From the NCBI GenBank assembly GCA_026770705.1, contig JANJGN010000052.1:620001-684000 (forward strand): a stretch of DNA of 64,000 nucleotides. Reading direction: 5' to 3'. Below, piece by piece: positions 3,655 to 36,935 of the stretch (the stretch's first letter is position 1; every line of letters starts with the position of its first letter). The notes under the pieces are model-generated. The model worked only from the letters and a program-made list of their open reading frames with translations. It was not told the origin of the DNA and searched no databases. The DNA comes from Isurus oxyrinchus. Its lineage: Eukaryota. The position numbers and the translations under genes were made by a program.

Positions 3655-3794
3655 TCAAACAGTCTGTCGACTTCCTTTCACTGTTTGTTCCTCCCAGACA
3701 CAGACTCCAGCGATAGTGATAACCACAGCCACAAGGAATATCACAGCTCGTATTCCCAGGATCAGGATCACGTGCAGAATCTCTCCTCCACTGT
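3655..3794 (-). CDS. Transmembrane/short-tail terminal exon, activating type: (D)SGGEILHVILILGIRAVIFLVAVVITIAGVCVWEEQTVKGSRQTV*
   Basis: Polypyrimidine+tag acceptor at 3795-3797, phase 1 matches Ig exons, long hydrophobic run containing Arg (CGA 3750-3748), TGA at 3657-3655; copy at 39635. Confidence 0.85.
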
Positions 3795-5477
3795 CTAGAG
3801 AACACACAGAAAGAAATCATCACTGACTCTCCGCTTTCAATCTCTCACTCTGGCTGAACAATCAAGCTTCATATCACTGCAACATTTGCTGTAATATTGA
3901 CCCATCCACTGGGATTCAATGTGGAATGAATGTTTTCATTGTAAACACTCTAAGAGTGGACAATCGGAACTTTCCCCTTAGCGTGGAACATTGGTGAGAA
4001 TGGATCATTGTGCTGTTGGACTCCCTGTCCAATGTTTCTCTCCATTGCTGTGTACAGGATTGTGCTGTAGAAAATTCTGGAAACGTTTTGTGAAGGATGG
4101 AAATCCATCTCGGATGCGTGTGTGAATCGGGCAGGATCGAGATGGACTCCCCCATGGACTTACACCCCCCGCTTAATAAACAGTTCCAATCTTTACCCAG
4201 AGAGAGGGGAGAATGTGGAACTCACTCCCACTGGGAGTGGTTGAGGTGAACGGTATCGATGTATTTACGGGGCAGGAGGGTCAGTAACCAGAGGGACACA
4301 GATTGACGAACTGGAGGGGGAGATGAGGAGAATTTGTTTTGACAGAGCGAGTTGTTGTGATCTGGAAGATTCTGCCTGAAAGGGTGGTGGAAGCAGATTC
4401 AATAGGAACTTTCAAAAGGGGAATTGGATAAACACTTGAAGGAGGGAGATGGGGGCAAAGTGGAGTGGTGGTTAGTGGATCTGATTGGATAGAACATTGA
4501 AAGACCTGGCACAGGCACAATGGGCTGAATGGCTTCCTCCTGTGCTGTATCATTCTCCACTTCCATGATCTCTCCCCCAGTCAGTAACCACTCCAGATCC
4601 CTCTTGAAGGCAACAGAGCAACAGCAACCACCACACCCACGGACAGCACATTCCCGAGGATCACTGCTCTCTGGGAAAAGATGAACTCCCCAACATCCAG
4701 CCTATTCCTGCTTCCCAGAGAGTGTAAACCCTTCAGGGAGGCACTGAGGAAGTTTTCAATAAAATGACATCAAATCTACCGTTTGAGAAATAATTTAATT
4801 CCGATGAACTCACAGCTTGTGAGGCAAACTGGGAAGTGGATTTGCTTGAAAAGCTGAGAGATGCAAGGGTTAAGTTCTACTGTGCACCACTGGTGGTACA
4901 GTGTAACTACAGCGTGACGTTTACATAGGCAATCCCTATTATAAACAAGGACATTGGACATCAGGTGAAATACGGGCACTGGAAAAGTGAGAACATGATG
5001 TAAGCTTTTCACCAACAGGAATTCCCTTCCTAAACCTCTCCACCTCTCTCTTACTCTCAGATACTCAAACAAAATTTCACACAGATTCACGTAAGGAGGA
5101 GTTGGGACAATTGACTGGTCAAAGGGTTAGGTTTCAGGAAGCTTCTTAAAGGAGGATAGAGAGTTGGAGAGACAGAGAGTATCTGTGAGTGTCTCTATGC
5201 ATCTGAGTGTCTGTAATAGACTTTGCAATTTCCATATTCTTCCATAAACATGAAAGGGAACAGAAATCTCAGAATCCAGGTCAACTCTCCGGTGCAGCAC
5301 TGAGGGAGGTCAGGTAACCCACTGGGGAGTATTGTGCTAGTGTGTTTGTTGGTGTCTTTGTGTGTGCTCATATACGAGGGATTGTGTATCTGCAGGTGTC
5401 TATTTAGGTCTGTATATTTGTCTGTGTTTGTGTCATGTTTCAATCTGAGACAGATGATGAAATCTGTGTGCACTCAC

Positions 5478-5630
5478 ATTCCACAGTGATGGTTATGAAC
5501 CCCTCCACTGCTCCATGTTCATTCTCTGCCAAACACTGATAGTCTCCAGTGTCCCTGGATGTAACGTGAGGAATCACCAACCACAGCTCATTGTTGGAAC
5601 TTGTTCTGTTCATTGTGATATTCAGATGTC
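5478..5630 (-). pseudogene. 3' remnant of second C2-set exon of gene A (5' half and acceptor replaced by ~180 bp of unrelated sequence)
   Basis: Matches the 3' half of the intact exon 21279-21560 (NNELWLVIPHVTSRDTGDYQC...TITVE|gtgagt); match breaks at 5630 and resumes in the intron at ~5810. Confidence 0.8.
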
Positions 5631-5953: not shown

Positions 5954-6250
5954 CTTGTACAGTTAGTACGAGGGTCCGCTCCGATGAAACAGATGGATAT
6001 CTCACTCTGCAGCTGAGAGTGTGTCCGTGGTGTTTGAGTGATGGGATCAGGGTCAGAACAGAAGTATAGGTCAGAGTGACACCATGCTGAGTTACAGTGT
6101 TTGAGACTGATCCACGTACGTCAGTGGGAGTGTCCCAGGTTAAGACAGGTGCTGCTGTTCCATTGCACGTTGTGTTGAAGGTGCAGCTTACATCCACACG
6201 CTTTCCTGCAATAATTTCAGCAGGGAATATCGTGGGTTTATCTGTGAATT
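5954..6250 (-). CDS. Siglec-type C2-set Ig exon (domain 2), gene A
   Basis: 297 nt, phase 1/1, tag acceptor and G|gtaagt donor; SCTFNTTC (C-x5-C as in Siglec domain 2), LTW, HHGHTLSCRV. Confidence 0.9.
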
Positions 6251-6978: not shown

Positions 6979-7347
6979 CAGAAATGTGAAGCTGGGTTGC
7001 AGGATAGTAGCTGTAACTATTACTGTTGTCAAATTCTATTCTGAAAAAATAAGGTCCTGCATCTTCCCGTCTGATGTTGTTTATAATCAGGGAACAGTCG
7101 CCATCTTTCAGGTCTCCAGACAGCCGGGTCCAATGGTGGAACCGTGGTAACTCGTGACTGTGATCCTTGGAGTGAAAGGCAATGGGAGCCCAGGGAATCT
7201 GTTCCTCATTATTAAACCAGACTCCACCTCGTGGTTGGTTTTCCAGACATGATGGATAACTGTAATGACATGGAATCTGTACACACGAACCTTCCTGAGC
7301 TGTCACCTCTCGTGGACTGTCACCTTTCCACTCTTGTGAGGGTTCAG
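6979..7347 (-). CDS. Siglec-type V-set Ig exon V1 (type B), gene A
   Basis: 369 nt open, cag/gt, phase 1/1; EGSCVQIPCHYSYP, GDLKDGDCSLII, DAGPYFFRIE with essential Arg. Confidence 0.9.
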
Positions 7348-7409
7348 CTGGGGAGAGAAATATCAATATTTAACTCTGGATGTTTTATGGATCCACTGAA
7401 CCCGATATT

Positions 7410-8200
7410 TGCAGATGTGGCTGAATTGGGGGGATGGTCAATACTGAGGAGGACTGCAACAAATTATTTTGGCAGGAAGAATAGAAAAACAGGATATTAT
7501 TTAAATGGAGACAGGCTGCAGAATGCAGTACAGAGGGATCTGGGTGTCCTTGTACATGAATCACAGAAAGTCAGCATTCAGGAACACCACGGAATGAGGA
7601 AGGCAAGTGGAATGTTGGCCTTTATTGCAAACGGATGGAGTATAAAAGGAGGGAAGTCTTGCAACAGCTGCACAGGGCGTTAGTGAGATTGTAACAGAAT
7701 CATTGTGTACAGGCAGTTCAGAGAAGCTTCACTGGGCTGATTCCTGGGATTAAAGGGTTTGTCCTGTGAGGAAATGTTGAGCAGGTTGGGCCTGTATCCA
7801 TTGGAGTTTAGAAGAATGAGGGGTGACCTTATTGAAACATATCCGATTCCGAGGGGGCTTGACAGGGTGGATGCTGGGAGGATGTTTCCCCCTCGTGGGG
7901 GAATCTAGAACCAGGGAGCACAGTTTCGGAATGAGGGCTCTCCCATTTAAGACTGAGATGAGGAGGAATTTCCTCTCTCAGAGGGGCGCTAGCCTGTGGA
8001 ATTCTCTTCCCCAGAGAGCAGTGGAGGCTGGGCCATTGAATAGACTCAAGGCTGAGTGAGGCAGGTTTTTGATCAACAAGGGAGTCAAGGATTTGAGGGA
8101 CAGGCAGGAAAATGGAGTTAAGGCCACAACCAGATCAGTGAGAGCAGGCTCGAGGGGCCGAATGGCCTGCTCCTGTCCCTATTTCTTATGATCCTACATT
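7410..8200 (+). mobile_element. CR1-type LINE 3' fragment
   Basis: QRDLGVLVHESQKVS and FKTEMRRNFLSQR motifs, CR1 tail. Confidence 0.85.
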
Positions 8201-8245
8201 CTTACCTTCTTAAAATATTAAAGCTGCAGAATAAAATGCAAGTGA

Positions 8246-8650
8246 ATGACCCGCTCGACCCACCTTCCATCTGGGGGTCCCATGGGGAGGACCCTTCCTG
8301 AGCCAGATCCACCAGCCAACATGGTCTGGATCCGAGCACAGGAGACACGGGGGGGAGTGACTAACAGGCTCCTTGTGACAGGCCCCGTCTGTCCAATGGC
8401 TGGCTTTCAGCTGCCAAGGCCAGAGTTGTCCTTGCTAAAACCGGCTCAGGACAGGCAGGACCCCTGTGCAGACCCCCTCCAGCGCTGCAGCCTCTGTACA
8501 AACCCCTCATGCGCTTGTGGAGAGACACAAACAAGGCTGCACATTACCGAGGAGAATCCCCTCTACGGACTAAGGGGCTGACTCATCACCTTAAACTCAG
8601 CAAATGAGGAGGCTCTCGCTCGGTATCGGGGCTTGGCATTCGCTCAATAA
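8246..8650 (+). mobile_element. Non-LTR retrotransposon C-terminal remnant (inverted copy at ~49583-49915)
   Basis: CACGETQTRLHITEE zinc-knuckle-like C-terminus followed by an A-rich end. Confidence 0.45.
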
Positions 8651-8769
8651 AAATAATCAAATGACATTTTGGTCAGAAATCTAAGGAGGTTGTACATTCC
8701 CTCTAAAATAAGACTCGAGCTGGGGTCGAGGGTCAAAGGGCAAAAAGTTATATTTACACAACAAATTTA

Positions 8770-10560
8770 ACATGACAAATCACCCCAAAGCGCTACACAG
8801 GAGCGTCATAAAACAAAGTATGTCACGCAGACACATGTGGAGATATTAGCGACAGCTGGCCAGAAGAGGTCGGTGTTATGGAGAATCTTCAAAGAGGGAT
8901 GAAATGGATAGTGAGAGAGAGAGAGATAGAGATAGAGAGAGAGAGAGACAGAGAGAGTGAGAGAGAGGGACGGAGAGGGGTTGAGGGAGGGTATTACAGA
9001 GCTCGGGCCCCAGGCAGCTGAAGGCATGGCCGCCGATGTTGTAGTGATGGGATCGGGGGATGGTCAAGAGGCTGGAATTGGAGGAGCGCAGAGACCTCAG
9101 AGGATTGGAGTGACTGGAGGAGGTTACAGAGATAGGGAGGGTTGTAGGGGCTGAAAAAGTTAAGAGAGATTGGGAGAGTGTAGGGTCTGGAGGAGATTAC
9201 AGAGATAGTGAGGGTTGTAGTGATTGGAGGAGTTACAGAGATAGGGAGGGTTGTAGCGGCTGGAAAAGTTAAGAGAGATTGGGAGAGTGTAGAGTCTGGA
9301 GGAGTTTGCAGAGGTCGGGAGGGTTGTAGTGACTGGGGCAGGTTACAGGGGCAGGGAAAGTTGTCGGGACTGGAGCAGGCTACAGAGATAGGGAAGCTTT
9401 TAGGGGCAGGAGGAAGTTACAGAAATAGGGAGGTTTGTAGTGGCTGGAGGAGGTTGCAGAGATTGGTAGGTTTGTTGGGCAGGATGAATTTACAGATATA
9501 GTGAAGTGGTAAAGGCTTGAAGAGGTTACAAAGAATGGGATTGTTGTAGGTACTGGAGGTGGAAGAGGAGATTACAGGGATAGTGAGGAAACAAAGATGT
9601 AAATTGTGACGTTGACATTTTGCTTGACCAGGAGCCAGTCTCGGTCATCGAGCAGAGCGGGTGATAAGGGAATGGGACTTGGTGTGAGTAAGGACGTGGT
9701 CAGCAGTTTTGAATGGCCTCAAGTTTATGGAGTGTAGAGCGTGTGTTGGAACAGTCGAGTCTGGAGGTAATGAAGGCGTGGATGAGGGTTTCAGCAGCAG
9801 ATGAGCTGAGACAGGGTGAAGTCATGCGATGTTACGGAGGTGGAAATAGACGGTGTTAGTGAGGGCGCAGATATGAGGCCGGAAGCTCATCTCAGGATCA
9901 AATGGGACAACAAAGCTGTGAACAGATTGGCTTCAATCTCAGAGAGCTGCCAGGGAGAGGAATGGAGTTGGTAGCGAGGGAACAGAGTTTGGAGCGGGGA
10001 ATGAAGACAATGGCTTCAGTCTTTCCAATATTTAATTGGAGGGAATTTCTGCCCATCCAGTACTGGATGTCGGATAAGCAGCCTGATAATTTAGCAGCAG
10101 TGGAGGAGTCGAGAGAGGTGGTGGTGAGGTAGAGCTGGGGATCCTCAGTGGACAGGTGAAAACTAACACTGTTCAGATGATGCTGCAAAGCCATTGCAAG
10201 TGATTCTCTGGCTACGATGAGATGGATAAGAATGGAGCCAGGGGAGAGCAGTCCCACCCAGCTGGACGACAGTGGACAGGTGTTGGAGGAGGATGGTGTG
10301 GTCGAGCGTGTCAAAGGCTGCAGACAGATCGAGAAGGACGAGGAGGGAAAGTTGACCTTTGTCACAGTCACACAGGATGCCATTTGTGACCTTGATAAGA
10401 GCTGTTTCAGCACAGTGGCTGGGGTGGGAACCTGATTGGAGGGATTCAAACATGGAGTTCCGGGAAAGATGGGGACAGATTCGGGAGATGGAAACACGTT
10501 CAAGGACTTTGGAGGGGAAAGAGAGGCTGGAGATGGGACGGGGGTTTACACAGACAGTGT
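8770..10560 (-). mobile_element. L2-type LINE remnant with internal (GA)n and ~34-bp tandem repeats (9090-9590)
   Basis: LLVLLDLSAAFDTLDH and QLYL...DIQYWM...LQLNIGKTEAIVF RT motifs. Confidence 0.85.
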
Positions 10561-10817
10561 GAGGGGTGGAAGGTGTAGTGGGGAGGAGACACTTCACTCA
10601 GGGGGGATGTGTCATCACCCCTCAGCTCGGTTTATGTTACAGCTATGATGTGGATTCAATCACACACAATAAGCTCATGGATCTGGGAGCAGAAATAGAC
10701 AAATCATTAAAAATAGTGACGCTGGTTAACACGGCCAAAAAACAAGCAAATCAAACACTATTATTTCCCATTGAGTGTTGGATGTGAATTGTTGAGTAAT
10801 TATAACACAGCACTTAC

Positions 10818-11195
10818 CAGAAACCTGAAGCTGGGTTTCAGGGTAATAGTTATGGCTCGGACCATTGTCAAATTCTATTCTGAAAAAATAAGGTCCTTCA
10901 TCTTCCCGTCTGATGTTGTTTATAATCAGGGAACAGTCGCCATCTTTCAGGTCTCCAGACAGCCGGGTCCGATGGTGGAACCATGGTAACTCGTGACTGT
11001 GATCCTTGGAGTGAAAGGCTATAGACCATTTAGACCATTTGTTCTGTATGTACCTCCTCATATACCAGATTCCGACATGTGTTTTCTTTACCAAATGTGA
11101 TGAGTAACTGTAATGACATGGAATCTGTACACATGAACCTTCCTGCGCTGTCACCTCTCGGGGACTGTCACCTTTCCACTCTTGTGACAGTCCAA
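10818..11195 (-). CDS. Siglec-type V-set Ig exon V2 (type A), gene A
   Basis: 378 nt open, cag/gt, phase 1/1; GIWYMRRYIQNKWSKWSIAF; YFFRIE Arg present. Confidence 0.88.
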
Positions 11196-13899: not shown

Positions 13900-15080
13900 C
13901 AGAATGTCCACGAAATTCCCCAGTTTGAACTGGGATGTAGCTGACCGACTATCTGAATTCAGAATGTTTAAACAGCGTACAGAGCTCTGGTTTCCTGATT
14001 CAGGTGTGACTGAACCAGACGAGCCACCCATAAAAATTCACCTCGTGATTGGGAATGAAGGTCTACACAGGCTGAACACGTCAGGATTAACAGCAGAAGA
14101 GTGAAAGGATCCCCAATAGATATGGACGACTTTGGAAGACAGGTTCAGAATCAGGTGAAACTCCATATTCATCAACTAGAGTTTATGTCATTTCATCAGC
14201 CTACACAATCCATAGACCACTTTGTCAGCCAATGTAGAGAAAAGGGTACGCACTGTGATTTCAAACACAGAGCCTGCAGACAGAGTTGTTGAGTTGGTGA
14301 TCGCATCCACTCCCATGGAAGCCTTCCAGAAAGATCTGCTAGATAAGTCCAAAACCTATAGCATTGAAGAGCTACTCAAGGATGGACATAAATACGAAGT
14401 AATCCTCGCAGGTCAACGAAGCTTACAGGTCCTCAGTACAACATCAATTGTTGACACACTCACTAGAACATCCAAACCTAGTGAGACGTGTGGAAGGTGT
14501 GGCCTTCTGCAGGCACCAAGGAAATGCCCAGCTTTCCACCAATCCTGCAAGGCTTGTGGCAGAAAGGGCCATTGACAGCGGCAGGGCACGAGAGCAAAGG
14601 CTGATGCAGCTACAAAGAGCCGTGCGCTGATCCAAACAGACCCTACACAACTGGGAACCTTCAAGCAATAAGAATGACCATCCACTATCCCATCAGGAAC
14701 ATATACATGTGGTGACAGACAAACCAGGAAATGGCGATGATGTGCACGGTGAGACGAGGAGCGGTGATCGATATTCCACCTCTCACACATATCCTGACGT
14801 GGCTTGCCAATAAATTGTGGATTGTTGTCCTTAATGATCTCTCTCAGCACATCAAATAAACTGAAAATGTCCCATAGGGGTGGGATTTTCTGGCCCCACC
14901 CACTGCCAGGATTATCCAGTCTGGCCAAAAGCCAATGGATTTATGTTTGTCCCAGTTTCACATACTACCCCATCACCTCAATTCATGACATAACATTGAA
15001 ATATGCAGAAAGTTTCAACAATATTGGCAGTTTCAAAGGAGCTCCAACATTACACCTGCTGGACAATGCAAGTCTGTCAA
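13900..15080 (+). mobile_element. Degenerate Ty3/Gypsy gag-pol remnant
   Basis: gag-like LNWD...FRMFKQRTELWF and CGRCG...CPAFHQSCKACGRKGH zinc knuckles; stops and frameshifts. Confidence 0.75.
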
Positions 15081-16024: not shown

Positions 16025-18820
16025 CCCATAGAGTCATAGATTCACAGGGGTCCACAGCACAGTAAAAGGCCCTTTGGCCCATCGAATCTGCGTCGGTCAA
16101 ACAAGTACCTAATTGTTCTAATCCCATTAATGCACTGGGCCCAAAGCCTTGTATGCGATGGCATCACAAGTGCACATCCAAATACTTCTTAAATGTTATG
16201 AGGGTTTCTGCCTCTCCCACCCTTTCAGGCAGTGAGTTCCAGATTCAATCTATGCAACATCCTGGTAAATCTCCTCTGCACCCTCTCTAGGGCAATCACA
16301 TCCTTCCTATAATGTGGGTTCCAGAACTGCACGCAATATTCTAGCTGTGGCCTAACCAGTGTTCTATACAGTTCCAGCATAACCTCCCTGCTCTTATATT
16401 CTATCTCTCGGCTAATAAAGGCAAGTATTCCATATGCCTTCTTAACCACCTTATCCACCTGTCCCACTACTTTAAGGGAACGGTGGACATGCACACCAAG
16501 GTCCCTCTGATCCTTGTTACTTTCCAGGGTCCTACCATTCATTGTCTATTCCTGTGCCTTGTTTATCCTGCCCAAGTGCATCACCTCACACTTATGCAGG
16601 TTAAATTCCATTTGGCACTGATCAGCCCATCTGACCAGCCCGTCTATATCCCCCTGTAATCTAAGGCTATCCTCTTCATTATTTACCACCCCATCAATTT
16701 CCATATCATCCGCGAAGTCACTGATCAACCTTCCTACATTCAAGTTTAGACCGTTTATATATACCACAAACAGCAAGGGACCCAACACCGATCCCTGTGG
16801 AACCCCACTGGACACAGGCATCCAGTCACAAAAACACCCGTCGACCATCACCCTCTACTTCCTGGCACTCAGCCAATTCTGGATCCAATTTGCCAAATTC
16901 CCTTGGATCCCATGTGCTCTTACTTTCGTTTACAGTCTCCCATGCTGGACCTTATCAAAAGCCTTGCTGATGTCCAAGTTGACTATGTCAAATTCATTGC
17001 CCTCATCTACACAATTGGTCACCTCTTCAAAAAATTCAATCAAACTGGTCAGACATGACCTCCCTTTAACAAAACCATGCTGACTGTCCTTGATTAATCC
17101 CTGCCTCTCCAAGTGTAGATTAATTCTGTCCCTCAGAATTGCTTTCAATAGTTTCCCCACCACTGAGGTTAGACTGACTGACCTGTTGTTCCCTGGTTTA
17201 TCCCTTCCTCCCTTCTTGAATAACGCTACCACATTGGCTGTCCTCCAGTCCTCTGGTACCTCTCCTCTGGCCAGAGATGTATTGAAAATTATTGCCAGCA
17301 CCCCTGCTATCTCCTCCTTTGCCTCACTCAACAGCCTGAGATACATTTCATCCGGGCCTGCAGATATATCTACGTTTGAGACTGCCAGACAACTTAGAAC
17401 CTCGTTCCTTTCTATTCTAATTTCTTTAACTATATCACAGTCCTTCTGCCTGATTTCCAAACCCACATTGCCCCTCTCACTTGTGAACACTGACACAAAG
17501 TGTTCATTTAGAACCCTACCTACATCTTCCGGTTCCACACACAAACTACCAATATGGTCCTTAATGGGCCTTACTCTTTCCCTAGTTATCCTCTTACTCT
17601 TAATGTACTTGTAAAATAACTTTGGATTTTCCTTCATTTTTCCTGCTAATGTTTCTTCATGGCCCCTTTTTGCTCTACTAATTTTCTTTTTAAGGTCCCC
17701 CCTACACATTCTATACTCTTCTAAGGCTTCCACTGTTTTGAGCCCTTGGTATCTGCCATAAGCCTCCCTTTTTCTCTTTATCCAATCCTGTAAATCTCTC
17801 GACATCCAGGATTCCCTGGATTTGTTGGTCCCACCCTTTGCCTTTACTGGAATATGTTGGCCCTGTACTCTCCCCACTTCCTTCCTGAATGAGTCCCATT
17901 GCTCTGACGCAGATTTCCCTAAAGGTAGCTGCTCCCAGTTCCACTCTGGCCAAATCATATTTGATCTTATTAAAATCAGCCTTCCACCAATTGAGAACTC
18001 AGATTTCTGGCCCATCCTTGTTCTTTTCCATAACAACCTAGAATCTAATGGAATGATGATCACTATCTGCACAATGCTCCCCCACTGATACGTCTACAAC
18101 TTGCCTGGTTACATTCCTTAAAATTTACTCCAGGACCGACCCCTCTCTTGTAGGATTTTCTATGTACTGGCTTAAAAATCTCTCCTGGATGCATTTTAAC
18201 AATTCTGCCCCCTCTAAAACTATCACACTATGACTAACCCAGTTATTGTTGGGGAAGGTGAAAAGCCCCACCATTACAACCCGATTATTTTTATACTTCT
18301 CTGAATTTTGCCTTTGTATCTGCACTTCTATTTCTCTGAGTGTCATTGGGCCTGTAGAACACTCCCAGCAAGCTGATTGTTCCTTATTTGTTTTTAGGTT
18401 CTACCCATATGGCTTCATTTGAGGAGCCCCCTAAGGTGTCTTCCCTCCTCACTGCAATAACTGATTCCTTGATCAATCTTGCAATACCCCCTCCTCTTTT
18501 ACCTCCTTCCCTGTCTTGCCAGAAGACCCTGTATCCTGTAATATTGAGCGGCCAATCCTGCCCCTCTCTAATCCATGTCTGTGACAGCAATGACATCATA
18601 CATCCATGTGTTATTTGTGACCTCAACTCATCTGCTTTATTCGTCAGACTCCTTGCATTAAAGTAAATATAATCCAACTTTGCCACGCTATCTTGTGCCT
18701 TAACTGGCCAATAATTTCTCTGCCTTCCAGGTTCACTTGCTCTCTCTTCTAATTTTGGCTGTGCATCTCCCTCTGCTGAACCTCCTCTCTGGATCCCATC
18801 CCCTGCCATGTTAGTTTAAA
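16025..18820 (-). mobile_element. CR1 LINE ORF2 (endonuclease + RT), fragmented
   Basis: YFNARSL, VPEDWRTANV, QHGFVKGRSCLT, GVPQGSVLGP, FADD, LVRPQLEYC motifs. Confidence 0.95.
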
Positions 18821-21278
18821 GCCTCCCCAATTGCATCAAGGGTAAAATGCCAATTGAAACCAGGGACAACATCCAAGAATGACAATCCCACAGATCACTG
18901 TGAGCATTTAAAGACACCTCCAGACAAGGTTACCAACACAAGATCTGGGCGTAAGTGCAGATTACCTCTACTCTTTAGACACTCAAATATTCAACAAATC
19001 TATACTGTTATGTAATTGTCAATAAAATTGAAAATGATACCAGAAACCTCTTGTTCCCTGTCCTTCTCAAAGATCCATCCCTGCAGCTGGAGCCTTAAGA
19101 GTTATTGATGTGGGTCTTAATTTATCAGATTGTAGAATGATCGGGAACAAAAGGAAGCCATTTGGCCCATCGAGCCTGTGCTGGGCTTTTGAAAGATCTG
19201 TCCAATTAGTCCCACTCTCACCTCTGCTCTCTCCTCCACAGCCCTGCAAAATGTCACCTTCAAGTATTTATCCAGTTCCCCTTCTGAAAGTTCCTGTTGA
19301 ATCTGCTTCCACCGGCCTTTCAGGCAGTGAGTCAATGGTCTCTCTCTGAGCTGCAAAGTGCCCAGATTCTGTGAAATTTGAACTCTGCAGCAGGTCAGAG
19401 ACAATCATGATAACTCAGAATATTTGACAGTTTTACACACAGACAGCTTTGCCTTCCTTCTCTCTTTCAGTTATCTTGCTCCCTTATTGAAGTATCTAGC
19501 ATGGTGAGAATGGACAGGAAGTGTGACACTGAACAGCCTGTCTATTCTAGGAGCTGCTGTGTTGTCTTCATGGGCAATTTTGAATAAAGGCAGCAAAGGA
19601 CACAAATTTCAGGTCATTGCTATCGGAGACCTCACATCAGGATAGACTTCATCCCCCAGTTTTTATCCCTGATTTTCTATTCAGCTGATCACTCCCCTGT
19701 CACTGGCTGAACTACACTAACTCTCAGTCCAGCAATGACTCAAATTTCAAATTCTCATCATTGATTTCTTACCCCACCATCCCCCCTCTACACTCTCTAT
19801 CACTGTAACCTCCTCCAACCCTAAAAACCTCTGAGATCTCTGCTCTCCTCCAATTCTGCTGTCAGACAGGAGGTCAGTGTGTATCAGTAAGCACAGGGGT
19901 GATGGGTGAATGGGACTTGGTGTGAGTTTGTACACTGGCTCACTGGCTCAATCGGGCAGGATTGAGATGGACTCCCCCACGGACTTACACCCCCCGCTTA
20001 CTAAACAGTTCCAATCTTTACCCAGAGAGAGGGGAGAATGTGGAACTCGCTCCCACAGGGAGTGGTTGAGGTGAACAGTATCGATGTATTTAAGGGGCAT
20101 GAGGGTCGGTAACCAGAGGGACACAGATTGACGAACTGGATGGGGAATTTGTTTTGACAGAGCGAGTTGTTGTGATCTGGAAGGTGCTGCCTGAAATGGC
20201 AGTGGAAGCAGATTCAATAGGAACTTTCAAAAGGGAAATTGGATAAACACTTGAAGGAGGAAGATGGGGGTAAAGTGGAGTGGTGCTTAGTGGATCTGAT
20301 TGGATAGAACATTGAAAGACCTGGCACAGGCACAATGGGCTGAATGGCCTCCTCCTGTGCTGTATCATTCTCCGCTTCCATGATCTCTCCCCCAGTCAGT
20401 AACCACTCCAGATCCCTCTTGAAGGTGACAGAGAATCAGCAACCACCACACCCACTGACAGCACATTCCCGAGGATCACTACTCTCTGGGAAAAGATGAA
20501 CTCCCCAACATCCAACCTATTCCTGCTTCCCAGAGAGTGTAAACCCTTCAGGGAGGCACTGAGGAAGTTTTCAATAAAATGACATCAAATCCACCGTTTG
20601 AGAAACAATTGAATTCCGAAGAACTCACAGCTTGTGTAGCAAACTGGGAAGTAGAGTTGCTGGGAAAGCTGGGAAACACAAGGATTAAGGGCTACAATGC
20701 CACCACTGGTGAGAGGCTGTAACTACAGCGTGACGTTTACATAGGCAGTCATCATTATAAACAGGGGCTTTGGACATACTGGGAATTATGTGCACGGAAA
20801 TAGTGAGAACATTATGTAAGCTTTTCACCAGCAGGAATTCTCTTCCTAAACCTCTCCAACTCTCTCTTACTCTCAGATACACAAAGAAAATCACACAGAA
20901 TCAGATAAGGAGGAGTTGGGTTGGTGATTCGTCAAAGGGTTAGGTTTCAGGAAGCTTCTTAAAGGGAGAGAGAGAGTTGGAGACGCAGAGAGTATCTGTG
21001 AGAGCCTCTAAGCATCTGAGTGTCTGTAATAGTAATTTCCATATTCTTCCATAAATATGAATGGGAACACAAATCCCAGAATTCAGGCTAACTCTCCAGT
21101 GCAGTAGTGAGGGAGGTCAGGTAACCCATGAGGGAGTGAGTGTTAGTGTTTGTGTGTGAGTGTGTCTTTGTGTGTGGTCATATATGTGTGTCTGCACGTG
21201 TCTATTTAGGTGTGTATGTTCGATGGTGTTTGTGTAGTGTTCGAATCTGAGAGAGATGTTGAAGTCTGTGTAACTCAC

Positions 21279-21560
21279 GTTCCACAGTGATGGTTATGAA
21301 CCCCTCCACTGCTCCATGTTCATTCTCTGCCACACACTGATAGTCTCCAGTGTCCCTGGATGTAACGTGAGGAATCACCAACCACAGCTCATTGTTGGAA
21401 CTTGTTCTGTTCATTGGGACATTAAGATGTCGCCACGTCAGGTTAGAAGCTGGGAAGCTCTCGACAGAGCAGATTATCACTGCAGAATTCCCCTCAATTA
21501 TATTGATCGATGAAGCGTTAATCATATCAAGAGAAGTAATTGAGAGATTCTGTGGTGCGT
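21279..21560 (-). CDS. Second C2-set Ig exon, intact, gene B
   Basis: 282 nt, phase 1/1, cag/gt; APQNLSI...ICSVESFPASNLTW...DTGDYQCVAENEHG. Confidence 0.88.
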
Positions 21561-21696
21561 CTGAAAACAAATACAGATCAGTTAACTTACACTGACTGTG
21601 AAGCACTTTGAAAGACACTGAGAATGTGAAAGGTGTGATGTCAATGTACGTTCTTTCACCACATAGCCCGTAATCCAGGCAGACACTTCAGTTCAG

Positions 21697-22045
21697 TATT
21701 GAGGGCGTGCTGCACTGTCAGAGGGTCAGTACTGAGGGAGTGCTGCACTGTCAGAGAGTCAGTACTGAGGGAGTGCTGCACTGCCAGAGGTTCAGTACTG
21801 AGGGAGTGCTGCACTGTCAGAGGGTCAGTCCTCAGAGGGTGCAGTCAGTGCTGCACTGTAGGAGGGACAGTACTGTGGGAGCACTGCAGTGCAGGAGGGT
21901 TACTGCTGAGATAAAACTGCACAGTCAGAGCGTCAGTTCTGATTGACCAGTGCAATGTTGGAGGAGCACTACTGAGGGATCATTACACTATTAGAGAGAC
22001 AGTAATGAGGGAGTGCTGCACTGTAGAAGGGTCAGTGCTGAGGAG
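21697..22045 (+). repeat. 33-bp minisatellite array
   Basis: Same unit as 1325-2305. Confidence 0.85.
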
Positions 22046-22304
22046 GCAAACATGCTGTTATGTGTGTACTATAGGCCTCCTGTGATAATGTGGAGTGCCA
22101 GGTACTTTTAAGAGAATACAAGTGGATAAACCATGTGACAGTACTGACCAATCACTGGACAGTGTGGGCCACTGGTTAACTGTAAGTCCAGAGCTGGAGG
22201 TGGTTGTGGGAGCAGGCAAGGATTTAGTGCTCTGCCCTCTGTTACAATAAATAATCAGCTTGTTCTAATGTCGGTCTCTCTTGGTTATTGATAGCGAGCA
22301 TCAG

Positions 22305-22559: not shown

Positions 22560-24330
22560 ACCAGTGAACTCATAGACTCAAGATATAAAACCAACAAACA
22601 GTCAGGGAGAGATGGACAATCCAACATGTGATCACATTTCAGAGATGTGTAAGAATAATAAAGCAGTAATACTCAGGGATTTTAACTACCCAAATATTAA
22701 CTGGGACAGCTTTAGTGAGCAAGGTAGGGAGGGAGAAAAATTCTGAAGTTGCATCCAGGAGAAGATTTTTAGTCTGTGCATAGAAAGCTCAACAAGGGAG
22801 GGGACAGTTCTGGACCTAATATATGGAAAAGCGCCGGGGAAGTTGGAAAGCGTATCAGTAGGGGAGATGGTGACTGTAACTCAATTGGATTTAGGACAGT
22901 TATGGAGAAGGATAAGTTTGTGCTGGGAATAAAAATTCTAAACTGGGGAAAGGCTAATTTTACTAAGATGAGATATGATTTGGCCCAAGTGGACTGAGAG
23001 AAGCTCTTTGCAGATAAAACTGTGTCAGAGCAGTGGGAGGCATTCAAGGAGGGAATAGCGAGAGTACAGAGCAGATATCTTCCTGTAAAGACAAAGAGGG
23101 AGACCAAGTCTGGAGAACCCTGGAAGACAAGGAACATAAAGGTTAGGACTGAGAAAAAAAAGAAGCTTATGGCAGATACTGAGGGCTCAATACAGCAGAG
23201 TCCCTAGAGGAGTACAAATAGTGCAGAGGGGAACTGAAAAAGGACATGAGGAAAGATAAGAGAGTGCATGAGAAAGCACTGGTGGGTAGAATAAAGCAAA
23301 ACCCAGAGGGGTTTTTTAAATATGTAAAAAGCAGCAGAATAACTCGGGAAAGAGTGGGGCCGATTAGGGGCCATAGAGGTGATGTGTGTGTGGACCTGGA
23401 AGACGTGGGTACAGTCCTCAATGAATACTTTGCATCTGTCTTCACAATGGAAAAGGATGATGCAGGTATAACATCAGGGTGGAGGACTGTGAAATATGAG
23501 ATGAAATTAACACAGAGAGAGGAGGTACTAGTGGGTTTAGTGGCCTGAAAAGTGGATAAATCCACAAGCCCAGATGAGATGAATCCAAAGCTGTTGAGGG
23601 AGGAAAGGGAAGAGATATCAGGGGCCCTGGCAGTAATTTTCAAATCCTCTCTGGCCACAGGTGAGGTGCCAGAGGACTGGAGGATGGCTAATGTTGTCCC
23701 ATTATTAAAAAAGGGAGGAAGGGATAGATCAGGAAATTACAGGCCAGTCAGTCTAACCTCGGTGGTGGGGAAGTTACTAGTAAGAATTCTGAAGGACAGA
23801 ATGAATCTGCACTGGGAGAGACAAGGATTAATCTGGGATATTCAGTTGGATTTGTTAAGGGAAGGTCATGTTTGACAAACCTGATCAAATCTTTTGAGGA
23901 GGTAACCAGGAGTGTTGATGAGAGTAATGCCTTTGTTGTGGTCGACATGGGCTGAGGAAGGCTTTTGATAAGGTGCCTCTTGGCAGAGAGGCCAAGAAAG
24001 TAAGAGCCCATGGGATCCAAGGCAAAGTGGCACGTTGGATCCAATATTGGCTGAGGCAGGAAGCAGAGGGTGATGGTGGAGGGATGTTTCTGTGACTGGA
24101 TGTCTGTTTCCAGTGGGGTTCCACAGGGCTCAGTGCTGGGGCACTTGCTGTTTGTGGTGTATATAAATGAATTGGACTTATATAAAGGAGGAATGATCAA
24201 GACGCAAATGGAATTCAACCTGGAAATATGTGAGGTGATGCACTTGGGGAGGGAGTTGCTGACCAGCATGGACATGATGGGCTAAATGGCCTCCTTCTGT
24301 CTATGTGTCTATGAGTCTATGAGTCCATGA
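22560..24330 (+). mobile_element. CR1 LINE ORF2 remnant in the C2-C2 intron of gene B
   Basis: LNWGKANF, GEVPEDWRMANV, NYRPVSLTSVVGK, SGVPQGSVLG; (CTATGAGT)-like tail. Confidence 0.92.
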
Positions 24331-24496
24331 TGCACTGTCGGAGAGTCAGTAGTAAGGATGTACTGCCTGTCAGGGCTCACTTTTTACCAGTTAAACACCA
24401 ATGGTTTGTTGGTAAACAAAGTGCAGTATGTGGGAGCTTGCTGTGCACATTTGATACTATTCCAGCTAATGTAGAAAGAAGGGTGTTTGTACTTAG

Positions 24497-24793
24497 ATAG
24501 CACAGTCAGTACGAGGGTCCGCTCCGATGAAACAGATGGATATCTCACTCTGCAGCTGAGAGTGTGTCCGTGGTGTTTGAGTGATGGGATCAGGGTCAGA
24601 ACAGAAGTATAGGTCAGAGTGACACCATGCTGAGTTACAGTGTTTGAGACTGATCCAGGTACGTCAGTGGGAGTGTCCCAGGTTAAGACAGGTGCTGCTG
24701 TTCCATTGCACGTTGTGTTGAAGGTGCAGCTTACATCCACATGCTTTCCTGCAATAATTTCAGCAGGGAATATCGTGGGTTTATCTGTGAAAT
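24497..24793 (-). CDS. C2-set Ig exon (domain 2), gene B; donor mutated GT>CT, frame reads on to a stop at 24384
   Basis: 297 nt open, near-identical to 5954-6250; ends T|ctaagt where paralogues have |gtaagt. Confidence 0.82.
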
Positions 24794-25737: not shown

Positions 25738-26106
25738 CAGAAACGTGAAGCTGGGTTACAGGGTAATAGTTATGGCTCGGACCATTGTCAAATTCTATCT
25801 TGAAAAAATAAGGTCCTGCATCTTCCCGTCTGATGTTGTTTATAATCAGGGAACAGTCGCCATCTTTCAGGTCTCCAGACAGCCGGGTCCGATGGTGGAA
25901 CCGTGGTAACTCGTGACTGTGATCCTTGGAGTGAAAGGCAATGGGAGCCCAGGGAATCTGTTTCTCATTATTAAACCAGACTCCACCTCGCGGTTGGTTT
26001 TCCAAATGTGATGGATAACTGTAATGACATGGAATCTTTACACACGAACCTTCCTGCGCTGTCACCTCTCGTGGAGTGTCACCTTTCCACTCTTGTGACA
26101 GTCCAA
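25738..26106 (-). CDS. Siglec-type V-set exon V3 (type B), gene B; essential Arg replaced by Lys
   Basis: 369 nt open, cag/gt; YFFKIEF (AAG at 25801-25799). Confidence 0.88.
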
Positions 26107-27028: not shown

Positions 27029-27068
27029 CTTGGAGAAGTGACAGGAGGAAGTAAGATTTCCCGATCAT
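27029..27068 (-). CDS. Leader exon of gene B (MIGKSYFLLSLLQ)
   Basis: acgATG, 40 nt, G|gtaata donor; joins V3 as ...LLQ-VGLS-QEWK, a plausible signal peptide. Confidence 0.82.
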
Positions 27069-27512
27069 CGTCCACTCTCAGGTATTTCATTCGCTCTCAA
27101 ACTGTGAAAGAGAAAGGAGTTAATGAGACCTCACCTCTTGTCTGACAGCTCTCGAGAGATCAGAACTGCTTTTAGACAATGTCTTCACAGACCTAATTTG
27201 ACTCTCTGTGGGATGAAAGGTGCTCTGTAGAGAGTTACAAGGCTTTAAGGAAGAAAAACAACAATGAACTTGCATTTCTATAGCACCTTTCACCACCTCA
27301 GGATGTCCCAAAGCTCATGTCTCTGCACTTCCCTCATCCCTTGAGCTAGAAAGATGTTCTGTACAACAGACTTGAGCCTCACACTCGGATCTCAATAATC
27401 AGCAGAAATCTTTCAAAGGCATCAATCATTGGAATCTCTCTTTATAAAGTCATAACATCAACAAAGGACGGTGTTGGTGGTGGAAGTGAATTCCAGTCGT
27501 TCCGTTACTTAC

Positions 27513-27652: not shown

Positions 27653-27879
27653 CAGATCAAAGTGACAGAGCAGCTGATGTTTAGAGTTTTTTGAAGCTGT
27701 TAACCCTTTGCGTTCTGGACTTGTGATGATATTTCTGCTCAAAAGTGGAAAGTCATTGACCAGGAATTTCTCCTGTGGGTCACTGGGTTTCGAACCCTCT
27801 CTCGCTCTCTGAGTGGATGGTCACCTGTTCGAGATTCATTTGGCAAAATTCAGGCTGGCAAACCAGATCAGCACTCAGT

Positions 27880-28552
27880 GTCAGGACTGAGAGTCCTGCA
27901 CAATCGGAGGGTCAGTACTGAGAGAGAGCTGCACTGTTGGAGGGTGAGTATTGAGGGAGTGCTGCATAGTCAGAGGGTCAGTACTGAGGGAGTGCTGCAA
28001 GGTCAGAGGGTCAGTGCTAAGAGAGAGCTGCATTGTCAGAGGGTCAGTACAGAGGGACTGCTGCACAATCGGAGCGTCAGTACTGAGGGAGTGCTGCACT
28101 GTCAGAGGGTCAGTACTGAGGGAGTACTGCACTGTTGGAGGGTCAGTACTGAGGGAGTGTTGCACTGTGAGAGGGTCAGTACAGAGGTAGAGCTGCACTG
28201 TCAGAGGGTCAGTACTGAGGGAGTGCTGCACTGTCAGAGGGTCAGTACTGAGACAGAGCTGCACTGTCAGATGGGCAGTACTGAGGGAGTGTTGCACTGT
28301 GGGAGGGTCAGTACTGAGAAGTGCTGCACAGTCGGAGGGTCAGTACTGAGGGAGTGCTGCACAATCGGAGGGTCAGTACTGAGGGAGTGCTGCACTTTCG
28401 GAGGGTCAGTACTGAGGGAATGCTGCACTGTTGGAGGGTCAGTACCGAGGGAATGCTGCACCGTCGGAGTGTCAGTACTGAGGGAGTGCTGCACTGCTGG
28501 AGGGTCAGTACCGAGGGACTGCTGCACTGTCGCAGGCTCAGTACCGAGGGAA
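27880..28552 (+). repeat. 33-bp minisatellite array (~20 units), inner end of left arm
   Basis: Visible tandem units. Confidence 0.92.
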
Positions 28553-28679
28553 TGTAAACCGAACCCATTGGTCAACTAAAATAGTGACAAGGGTTGAATA
28601 AACTGGTGATGAGGTGAAAAACAAGGAAGAAAAAGCAAGGAATGAAAGCAAGCAAATTGAAATCTGGCCGTGCCTCGCA

Positions 28680-33504: not shown

Positions 33505-34110
33505 GAGAGGAGGACATTCAGCACCTGAGCCTGTTACACAGGAACAGGAGGAGGCCCATTCAGACCCCTCGGGCCTGATACACAGGAACAGCAGGAGGCC
33601 CATTCAGCACCTGAGCCTGTTACACAGGAACAGGAGAAGGCCCATCAGCCTCATGAGCCTATTACACAGGAACAGGAAGAGGACATTCAGTCTCTCAACA
33701 CCCTTCAACAGGAACAGGAGAGACTCTCAGCCCCTCGAGCCTGTTACACAGGAAAAGGAGGAGTCCTATTCAGCCCCATAGAGCCTGTAACACAGGAACA
33801 AGAGGAGGCCATTCAGTCACCTTAGCCTGTTATCCAGGAACAGGAAGAGCACATTCAGTCTCTCAACCCTCTTACACAGGAATAGGAAACCCATTCAGCC
33901 CCTTTAGCCTTTTACACAGCAACAGGAGGAGGCCCACTCAGCCCCTCAAGCCTATAACACAGGAACAGGAGGAGGCCCACTCAGCCCCTCGAGCCTATAA
34001 CACAGGAACAGGAGGAGGCCCATTCAGCCCCCTCAAGCCTGTTACACAGGAATAGGAGGAGGCCCATTCAGCCCCATCAAGCCTGTTACACAGGAACAGG
34101 AGGAGGCCCA
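33505..34110 (+). repeat. ~43-bp minisatellite (CACAGGAACAGGAGGAGGCCCATTCAGCCCCTCGAGCCTGTTA)
   Basis: About 14 visible units; unit resembles the CR1 3'-terminal sequence seen once at ~52130-52180. Confidence 0.88.
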
Positions 34111-34245
34111 TGCAGCCCAAGCAGAGCGTGTGGGCAGTTCCTCTCCAGGCGAGCAGTCGGACAGGTCCTGGGTAAGTAACGGATCGATTGGAAATCACGG
34201 GGGGAGTTCTGAGGGCTCCTAATCCATTGTCCTGTCTTCTAAATC

Positions 34246-34558
34246 AGCACCTTAATACTGACCCTTCAACAGTGCGGCACTCCCTCAGTACTGATCCTCC
34301 AACAGTGCAGCACTTCCTGATTAATGTCCCTCTGACAGTGCAGCACTCCCTCAGTACTGACCCTCCAACAGTGCAGCACTCCCTCAGTACTGATCCTCCA
34401 ACATTGCAGCACTCCCTGATTAATGTGCCTCTGATAGTGCAGCACTCCCTCAGTACTGACCCTCAAACAGTGGAGATCTCCCTCAGTACTGACCTTACAA
34501 TAGTGCAACACTCGCTCAGTAATGACCATCCGACAGTGCAGCACTTGCTCAGTACTGA
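34246..34558 (-). repeat. 33-bp minisatellite array, inner end of right arm
   Basis: Reverse-complement units. Confidence 0.88.
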
Positions 34559-35140
34559 CACTGGGGAATTTCAGTCTACTCTGTGGGGCAGACGTCCCCT
34601 GAATGGGGTCTTGAATCCCGCAACATTCTGACCCCCTGAATTTGGCTGTGAAAACCATTGACCCACAGGAAAAACTCCTGGTCAATGACTGTCCACCTGT
34701 GAGCAGAAATATCATCACAGGGTCAGGACACAAACGGGTAACAGTTCACCAACATCTCAAAACATGAGCTGCTCTGTCACTTTGATCCAACTTCCTCATT
34801 TTGTCTCACAGTGACACATCCACCCTTTCTAATTCATTTCTAATCCATTTCTAATTTTAGACATTGTCTAAAAGCAGTTCTGATCTCTCGAGAGCTGTCG
34901 GACAAGAGGTGAGGTCTCATTAACTCCTTTCTCTTTCACAGCTTGAGAGTGAGAAGTGGATGGAATATCTGGGAGTGGACGATGATCGGGAAATCTTACG
35001 TCCTCTTGTCACTTTTCCAAGGTAATATCATCATCAGCTCAGACAGATTTATGTTTAACAGTCTTTGTAAAAGATCATTCTTATCTCTTAATCTCTGAAA
35101 CCTCCTGCAACTCAACCAAACAACTTCCCAGATCTCTGTG

Positions 35141-35355
35141 ATGAAAACAAAGAAAACTGCGGATGCTGGAAATCCAAAACAAAAACAGAATTACCTGGAA
35201 AAACTCAGCAGGTCTGGCAGCATCGGCGGAGAAGAAAAGAGTTGACGTTTCGAGTCCTTCTGTCGAAGGGTCATGAGGACTCGAAACGTCAACTCTTTTC
35301 TTCTCCGCCGATGCTGCCAGACCTGCTGAGTTTTTCCAGGTAATTCTGTTTTTGT
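35141..35355. mobile_element. Young Penelope-like insertion with 80-bp inverted arms and a target-site duplication
   Basis: Arms 35179-35258 and 35276-35355; CCCAGATCTCTGTG at 35127-35140 and 35356-35369. Confidence 0.75.
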
Positions 35356-36802
35356 CCCAGATCTCTGTGTTACTCCAATTCCGGCCTCTTGACCATCCCC
35401 CGATTCCCATCACTCCAATACTGGCGGCCGGGCCTTCAGCTGCCTGGGGCCTGAGCTCTGGAATTCACTCCCTAAACCTCGGGATGTAGGAGATCAGAGG
35501 GTTTCATTTTACTGAGAATCACCACGACCACATCACAGCTGCAGTGAGAATAGACAGAGAGTCCAGCCTTCACACTTCCTGTACAGTTTCACCATAGCAA
35601 CCACAATATGGAAATTTAAAAATACTGAAAGTTAAACTGAAGCTCCACCAGTCAGTGTAGAGAGTTGAGATGTTTACACAGTTTCCCTGTGTATCTTGTA
35701 GACACTGTGTTGGGTGGAAGACTGGCTTCACTAAACAGGGTCCTGAGGACCATGAGCCAATGTAGAATGAACTTGTCCACTCCTGTGTCCAGGAATCTCT
35801 TCCATCCATTGTGAAAACTTCGGGAGTTCCTTGTGTGTCCTGTAGATGGTCCACACTGCAGCCACTGTGCCCCAGTGATGGAGGGAGTGGATATCAAGTC
35901 TAGTGGATCTATAAACCATCCAGAGTTAAATATTGACATTTCTCTCCCCAGTTGGACTGTCACAAGAGTGGAAAGGCGACACTCCATGAGAGGTGGCAGC
36001 GCAGGAAGGTTCGTGTGTACAGATTCCATGTCATTACAGTTAATCATCACATTTCGTAGGGAGATCACGTGTTGGAATCTGGTTGAAAGGAAGAGATGGG
36101 AACCCACAGCCTAAATGGTCTATAGCCTTTCATTCCGAGGGTCACAGTCACAGGGATCAAAGATTCCGCCATCGTACCCGGCTGTCTGGAGACCTGAAAG
36201 ATGGCGACTGTTCCCTGATTATAAACAACATCAGACGGGAAGATGCAGGACCTTATTTTTTTCAGAATAGAATTTGACAACAGGAATAGATACAACTATT
36301 ATCCTGTAACCCAGCTTCACGTTTCTGGTAAGTGCTGTGTTATAATTACTCAACAATTCACATTCAACACTCAATGGGAAATAACACAAACTGTGACGTT
36401 TACATATTAACACAAAACACAGCTTATTATAACACACTGTCTGATTCTCAATAACCTGGTGATAGCTTCCAGTTCAGTCCTAAAGCAACCGCTAATACTC
36501 ACTTTAATATCAATGATGAAAAGCATTAACTGTATTATCAGGTTATCCACTCCCATCAATCTCTCCTGTCCTGTTTGAAAGTCTGACGTATCGATAAAAG
36601 AAAGATGTGCATTTCTGCAACGCAATTTACCACCTCAGGAGGATCCAAATCCCTTCACAGCCAATGAAATTATTCCTGAATTGTAGTCACAGATGTTAAA
36701 CACAGCAGGCAGTTTGTGCACAGCAAGATCCAACAAACCACAATGTAATAAATCACCCAGATCACTGAGGAAATGAGAAGCCAGTGAACTCAAACCTCTG
36801 GT

Positions 36803-36935
36803 CTGATGAAGAGTCATACAGACTCGAAACGTTAACCCTGTCTTCCTCTCCACTGATACTGTCAGACCTGCTGAGTCTTTCCAGCAATTTTTGTTTTTGT
36901 TTCAGATTTCCAGCATCCACAGTATTCTGCTTTTA
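36803..36935 (+). mobile_element. Penelope-like fragment with a minimal hammerhead-ribozyme-like core
   Basis: CTGATGA-A-GAGTC-ATACA-GACTC-GAAAC-GTTA; flanked by a near-repeat AACTC..CTCTGGTCTGA; empty site at ~50825-50842. Confidence 0.6.

Follow-up and report, generated by a model that had tools for sequence, protein, structure and literature searches.

Siglec-like shark receptors with tandem V exons: serial splicing at the family level and a probable cysteine staple between V domains

Tandem V-set exons in a large family of Siglec-like genes of the shark Isurus oxyrinchus are spliced in series, as the assembled RNA of the family supports. We consider it probable that the encoded V domains follow one another in a single chain, stapled V to V by a loop cysteine, and form a rod whose tip varies and whose tail is either activating or inhibitory. 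The window analysed here, i.e. the whole stretch of 64,000 nucleotides from contig JANJGN010000052.1, holds two loci, A and D. A preliminary description had assigned to each of them two open, differently looped V exons before one C2, and the exon borders, the phase, the Pfam matches and the loop differences all agree with this layout. The V exons concerned are:

10818..11195, minus strand: V1, first-type V-set exon with a long WYMRR C-C' loop, without the extra cysteine, arginine kept
6979..7347, minus strand: V2, inner-type V-set exon with an EPS start, the extra cysteine at B+7, arginine kept
25738..26106, minus strand: V3, first V of the fused B+A unit, without the extra cysteine, lysine replacing the arginine
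48796..49161, plus strand: V5, first-type V exon of D
49979..50347, plus strand: V6, second V of D, without the extra cysteine; 5' flank and 5' part first-type-like, with a switch near 49915

A check of the sequence found V1, V2, V5 and V6 open, bordered by AG and GT and in phase 1-1. The Pfam models V-set and Ig_CD22 score in all four, and C2-set_2 scores in C2a. Each of the four keeps the VGLS/AEPS/AGLP start, the SCVQ cysteine and the F-strand arginine. The start had been taken for a signal-peptide tail retained by every exon along with the SCVQ cysteine; both are indeed present throughout, and the supposed tail is the 5' end of a duplicated V exon, which becomes a linker. The paired V exons are 83.9% (V1/V2) and 81.3% (V5/V6) identical in DNA with different loops, and a single C2 exon stands after each pair. 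The top matches in a PDB sequence search are Siglec-5, Siglec-8, CD33, Siglec-7 and MAG, with pIgR and JAML among the weaker ones, and FFRIEF/LFRTDF of the shark V aligns with the Siglec YFFRVE around the F-strand arginine. The closest proteins are shark RefSeq models of Carcharodon and Cetorhinus with 91-94% identity. Judged by their sequences, these genes agree with Siglecs of the CD33/MAG type in having a Siglec-type V-set and then a C2-set, the F-strand arginine, the cysteine pattern and the TM and tail types; arginine-dependent sialic-acid binding by the shark V domains is putative.

Locus D is complete: it runs from exon 1 and the leader through V5, V6 and C2a to a TM exon without charge and a tail present in two copies. 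Its exons other than V5 and V6 are:

ending at 42308, plus strand: non-coding exon 1, based on RNA joints in the family
42717..42798, plus strand: leader exon, with the ATG at 42759
51076..51372, plus strand: C2a exon
53672..53769, plus strand: TM exon, uncharged
54924..55005, plus strand: first cytoplasmic exon, with a second copy near 58007
56567..56816, plus strand: last exon, with the motifs LLYANP and TEYAQI and a second copy near 59455

In the last exon we take LLYANP to be ITIM-like and TEYAQI to be ITSM-like, and the ITIM-like tail suggests that the receptor of D is likely inhibitory. A C2b exon concealed in D is unlikely, as both N runs of that intron are too short for a 282-nt exon. 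V6 looks recombinant, its flank and 5' part matching the first-type V exons.

The exons of locus A lie on the other strand, downstream of a further set of exons that we call B:

27029..27101, minus strand: leader exon of B, the sole leader upstream of V1/V2 on that strand
24497..24793, minus strand: C2a exon of B, 3' end approximate, donor CT in place of GT
21279..21560, minus strand: C2b exon of B, intact
19937..19961, minus strand: junction of the 3' intron of B with the leader intron of A; the TM exon of B and the exon 1 and leader of A are removed
5954..6250, minus strand: C2a exon of A, with the putative interdomain cysteine at B+6 (its basis includes the CD33 alignment of a relative)
5473..5628, minus strand: C2b remnant of A, 3' half only, acceptor side missing
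3655..3794, minus strand: terminal TM exon of A, with an intramembrane arginine and a short tail, presumably of the activating type

The preliminary description had treated A as a gene. There is no leader for A between V1 and B, and the intron-1 homology of A to D ends at about 19950, the point where the 3' region of B joins. A has no leader because this junction removes its exon 1 and leader, and we rejected A as a stand-alone gene with a leader of its own; we read it as the 3' half of a fused B+A unit. The B/A-type junction has 14 copies genome-wide. All seven other copies that we examined lie after a V-C2a module without a TM exon and before a leaderless V, with the upstream C2a intact in six of the seven, which argues that B+A is one compound unit, L-V3-C2a-C2b-V1-V2-C2a-TM. 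The CT donor in the C2a of B is unique among 46 full C2a exons, and a transcript reaching V1-V2 is therefore not predictable from this copy. The TM exon type of A also terminates the Carcharodon models P0023 and P0026, and its arginine suggests that the receptor is likely activating. A hydrophobic-looking frame at about 4560-4700 on the minus strand was rejected as the TM exon, being out of phase with C2 and upstream of the true Arg-TM exon. The layout of B+A resembles V-C2-V-V-C2 protein models of Pristiophorus and Cetorhinus. Over V2-C2a/V6-C2a the identity between A and D is 94.9%, in a mosaic relationship, and the two share ectodomain sequence over opposite tail types, the sequence half of a paired-receptor test.

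Exact-word counts across the genome gave at least 656 V, 226 Cys-type V, 473 C2a and 323 leader copies; these are lower bounds, as the same words recover 76 of 86 V, 30 of 41 Cys-type V, 39 of 49 C2a and 29 of 78 leaders of our census, and they may include duplicated haplotigs. The census covers five regions with 1.264 Mb in total, four of them picked around V hits. Its 42 leader-to-C2a units hold no V exon in one case, one in 23, two in 12, three in two, and four, five, six and ten in one unit each, i.e. 2-10 V exons in 18 of the 42. The tandem V layout is far above the chance expectation, yet common in the family, and the gene whose leader marks the left edge of the window has five V exons. 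Other exon types are also tandemly repeated, with C2b found up to 9 times, exon 1 plus leader about 28 times and tails 2-4 times in a row. Single-V and multi-V heads are both found with both tail types. The V copies in the shark are 80-100% alike, pointing to duplication within the shark lineage, and the length of a V array would shift by unequal crossing-over. Three of the 19 middle V exons are broken with later V exons intact, which implies skipping or dead genes.

Of the 19 RNA runs listed we compared five, all as assembled contigs, runs X1-X3 being one sample of one study. Predicted GT..AG sites are used from exon 1 to leader in X7, from leader to V in X1, X4 and X7 (with loose ends in X1-X3), and from V to C2a in X1, X2 and X7 (with loose ends in X2, X3 and X7). 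Joints from V to V occur in three runs. The one in X2 is 49160>49978 on GT..AG sites, with depth 84 and 29 letters on its short side; in X3 a V end runs into an EPS-type start at depth 94.5, and in X1 a V end leads back to a V start at depth 169.5. A loose end of X2 is also a V end plus an EPS start, and X7 has no V>V joint. The V5-like contig of X1-X3 has 14 differences from V5 and a 9-nt insert, so the RNA evidence stands at the family level and is not assignable to A or D. At this level, the junction check suggested earlier finds V>V and leader>V, and no joint or loose end from the V5 end to C2a and no leader>EPS joint among those listed.

The inner V domains carry an extra cysteine. In V2 it is the fourth one and lies in the B-C loop, seven residues past the B-strand cysteine (B+7), and the partner cysteine of C2a lies six past (B+6). 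In the sequence alignment of the relative P0014, the SCVQ cysteine and the C2a B+6 cysteine fall on a cysteine pair of CD33, and the B-E intrasheet cysteines of V also fall on CD33 cysteines. The CD33 pair is an interdomain disulfide, and so is the counterpart pair of Siglec-6 (excerpts of PMC7426717 and PMC10122656, respectively). The C2-type partner cysteine appears to have been re-created in the B-C loop of the V domain, and V-V-C2 chains are likely disulfide-linked through it. The single C2 had been considered the sole partner for the SCVQ cysteines; this holds for D only, where V6 is without the B+7 cysteine that V2 has in the position corresponding to the C2 partner, and the V5 cysteine of D would be free.

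The extra cysteine follows the position of the V. Its counts are not independent, owing to recent duplicates. In the census it is present in 36 of the 39 V exons after a V versus 5 of the 47 others; one of these five is at the margin of a region, and two are broken exons. The corresponding figures are 11/13 versus 1/18 for the unselected block that surrounds the window, 6/6 versus 1/15 for another 200 kb, and 34/45 versus 1/97 for 114 protein models of sharks and rays, counted without 14 incomplete domains and within-species duplicates. Of 20 first/second V pairs, 18 follow this rule and none is reversed. In each of the 11 shark and ray species, V domains after a V carry the cysteine more often than the rest, none of the seven V domains following a C2 has it, and the neighbouring B+9 position varies freely, unlike the B+7 cysteine. 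Inner V exons without it are V6 and two others here, the three exceptions among the 39, and 11 of the 45 in other species. A set of 42 cluster members includes four leader-Vc-C2a models from Carcharodon, one of which is isoform X4 of a V-Vc gene, and the value of 1/97 is therefore too low for a first-position cysteine. In a quick-method tree with the Cys column removed, poorly resolved with 68 of 128 forks open, the Cys-bearing V domains are scattered over species clades and need 16 changes, four of them forced by strong branches, so inheritance within one clade does not account for the distribution. Four ray inner V domains without the B+7 cysteine have a different extra cysteine right after the C-strand Trp. 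The Cys codon is near the upstream intron, and linkage could help maintain the position pattern.

AlphaFold models of relatives are of moderate quality (pTM 0.51 and 0.42, linker pLDDT 53-58) and were compared by fold superposition. The V2-C2a model superposes on D1-D2 of MAG with Z 19.0 and rmsd 4.5 over 211 residues, and the V-V model of the relative P0017 on D1-D2 of MAG 5lf5 with Z 15.4 and rmsd 4.5 over 207 residues. The P0017 model gives rmsd values of 4.4-4.7 against Siglec-10, 5.6-6.0 against CD33, 6.4 against pIgR, 8.7 against JAML, 11.1 against PD-L1 and about 20 against three other MAG chains. The V1-V2 part of the first model gave no Siglec D1-D2 match, chains being listed once each, by their V2-C2 match. 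The modelled V-V arrangement fits that of Siglec D1-D2, with the disulfide itself putative. An unpaired cysteine had been the argument for either-or use; inner V exons supply their own partner cysteine, and the argument therefore fails, V6 of D being one that does not supply it.

The first V domains vary more than the inner ones, which are conserved: the pN is 0.103 in the first V versus 0.042 in the inner V, and 0.222 versus 0.063 in their loops. The F-strand arginine is kept in all 36 inner V and in 31 of 35 first V. Positive selection was rejected, as pairwise pN/pS is below 1 in loops and framework, in first and inner V alike. The loop pS is high, which fits a shuffling of old loop variants.

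In the stapled chain that we propose, the SCVQ cysteine of V(n) would bond the B+7 cysteine of V(n+1), and the last V of the array would bond C2a. The rod would be stiff, its variable tip would do most of the ligand discrimination, and the Arg-bearing inner V domains would add reach and perhaps avidity. A wider proposal, which we hold tentatively and with somewhat less than even confidence, is that a self-extending V carrying both halves of the interdomain disulfide gave rise to several hundred Siglec-like receptors. Each would be a rod in which as many as ten Arg-bearing V domains end in a variable tip. The rods would act as multivalent sialic-acid sensors, exon copy number and splicing would determine their length and valency, and they would be shuffled onto activating or inhibitory tails.

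Strict either-or splicing, which the preliminary description had favoured over a V-V receptor, would have the leader select one V exon and join it to C2a, in the manner of Dscam. Every V retains an acceptor, a leader tail and phase 1-1, the RefSeq isoform P0159 splices the leader to the second V, and V6 of D is first-V-like and without the linker cysteine. But the V>V GT..AG joints in X1, X2 and X3, three runs of one sample, speak for the V-V receptor, and V5-end>C2a is absent among the joints and loose ends listed. Adjacent inner V exons within the long arrays are 92-100% identical, so little diversity would be gained by choosing among them, and an inner V used alone would leave its cysteine free. 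Neither intron length nor frame would enforce exclusion, the introns between paired V exons being 817 bp and about 3.5 kb with double inclusion in frame. We regard strict either-or use as highly improbable. What stands of the alternative use of V exons is the skipping of the first V in that one RefSeq isoform, against V>V joining in the family RNA; optional skipping of the first V may occur as minor isoforms.

The tandem exons could instead be neutral duplication debris of a fast birth-and-death cluster, in which the cysteine hitch-hikes with the V-V intron. All exon types are tandemly duplicated here, 15 of the 86 V exons in the census are broken, and pN/pS values of 0.6-0.7 indicate weak constraint. 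However, inner V exons are intact in 36 of 39, the cysteine follows position in 11 species while B+9 varies freely, it is missing after C2, and its bearers are scattered over the species clades, so we find this explanation unlikely. Somewhat less likely still are V exons in series whose extra cysteine forms inter-chain disulfide dimers or clusters. The B-C-loop cysteine would be exposed on the surface, and in the leader-Vc-C2a models it has no upstream partner, yet it is nearly missing from the tip V, the easiest site for inter-chain pairing, and it occurs just where an upstream cysteine would otherwise stay free.

Siglecs are textbook single-V lectins, and if the stapled chain is true, the V domain that binds the ligand was itself turned into a module that can be repeated. 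Cartilaginous fish would then seem to have a large innate receptor system that is as yet undescribed, and this reading opens tests of sialic-acid binding by the inner V and of selection for valency or reach. The best 120 of 181 protein matches are all from cartilaginous fish, and multi-V proteins of these fish are already among the NCBI models. A literature search found no study of multi-V Siglecs in sharks; mentions of the expansion may exist in subscription journals and in the supplements of genome papers, outside the scope of that search. Human Siglecs number about 15 (excerpt of PMC8615218), and Siglecs are counted among the jawed-vertebrate families (excerpt of PMC8455134).

The V-C2 module of CD33, MAG, Siglec-5 and Siglec-10 gives the best PDB sequence and fold matches and shares the cysteine pattern, the F-strand arginine and the V-C2 cysteine pair with the shark genes; it has one V only, whereas the shark V has a C2-type partner cysteine in its B-C loop. 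Siglec-12, or XII, of primates is alike in having two V-set domains before C2 in a Siglec-type receptor (excerpt of PMC6288428), and several shark V-V models carry Siglec-12-derived names at NCBI. Siglec-12 is a single primate gene, whereas the shark family has hundreds of members with arrays of 1-10 V exons, and we infer an independent origin of the two-V layouts. The Siglec-11/16 pair likewise combines inhibitory and activating tails with near-identical ectodomains (excerpt of PMC5701461). It is one pair, whereas the shark genes form a pool of hundreds. Several V-type domains in series are also found in pIgR and JAML, but their match is much weaker, and the V-V model is closer to Siglec D1-D2 (rmsd 4.4-6.0). 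In Dscam1, mutually exclusive Ig exons are tandem in-phase copies within the gene. The shark genes resemble it in their tandem in-phase Ig exon copies, but their adjacent copies are joined in RNA (at the family level, in one study) and their inner copies are near-identical.

Long arrays of V-set exons occur elsewhere in the same genome, together with repeated leaders and further family copies, as listed here by contig or scaffold:

G000:C52:2271651-2301627 (-), ten V exons with a single leader; nine of the ten carry the extra cysteine
C150:944508-965425, copy of six V exons
G000:C150:1002207-1051047 (+), exon 1 plus leader repeated in tandem about 28 times, upstream of one V-C2a-C2b gene
G000:C34:15136748-15189555, large scaffold carrying three copies of V, two of C2a and three of the leader

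The ten-V array has a frameshift in its second V exon, followed by eight intact ones, and the identical frameshift is found in the six-V copy. The exon 1 and leader repeats could represent alternative promoters or decay. The copies on C34 may anchor the cluster to a chromosome.

The ray protein models P0011 and P0015 are four-V receptors with the extra cysteine, seven residues past the B-strand cysteine, in V3; V2 and V4 carry a different one immediately past the C-strand Trp. Across our census of family loci (1.264 Mb, four of whose five regions were picked around V hits), the essential F-strand Arg is missing solely among first V domains (4 of 35; three Thr and one Lys), and Phe replaces the B-strand cysteine in three first V domains. 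Most census members of the WLKG-type V class, to which the V exon of gene C belongs, are broken.

Within the window we observed the following:

34096-39760 (+), gene C, a pseudogene with V4 disrupted by stops and a frameshift, C2a interrupted by a stop, and a remnant of C2b
1320-2310, 21680-22050, 27870-28560, 34240-34570, 41100-41950, 56020-56430 and 59080-59320, 33-bp minisatellite
13900-15000 (+) and 44300-45400 (-), decayed retroelement-like frame with a C-x2-C / G-H-W-like motif, read by eye
~16750-18300 and ~22600-24200, LINE remnants

Every gene unit has this minisatellite in its introns and spacers, where it may favour unequal crossing-over. The retroelement-like frame sits in the leader-to-V intron common to A and D.

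Both cytoplasmic exons of D are present twice (54311-56263 and 57394-59317, +, ~91%), which from the sequence would provide two alternative ends, each with an ITIM; other genes of the family have as many as four copies of these exons. In B, the donor of C2a is dead and the frame continues for 36 codons to a stop (exon with extension, 24384-24793, -), so that a secreted V-C2 protein is predicted if the read-through is used. This tail is similar to the intron read-through tail of the Cetorhinus protein model P0016.
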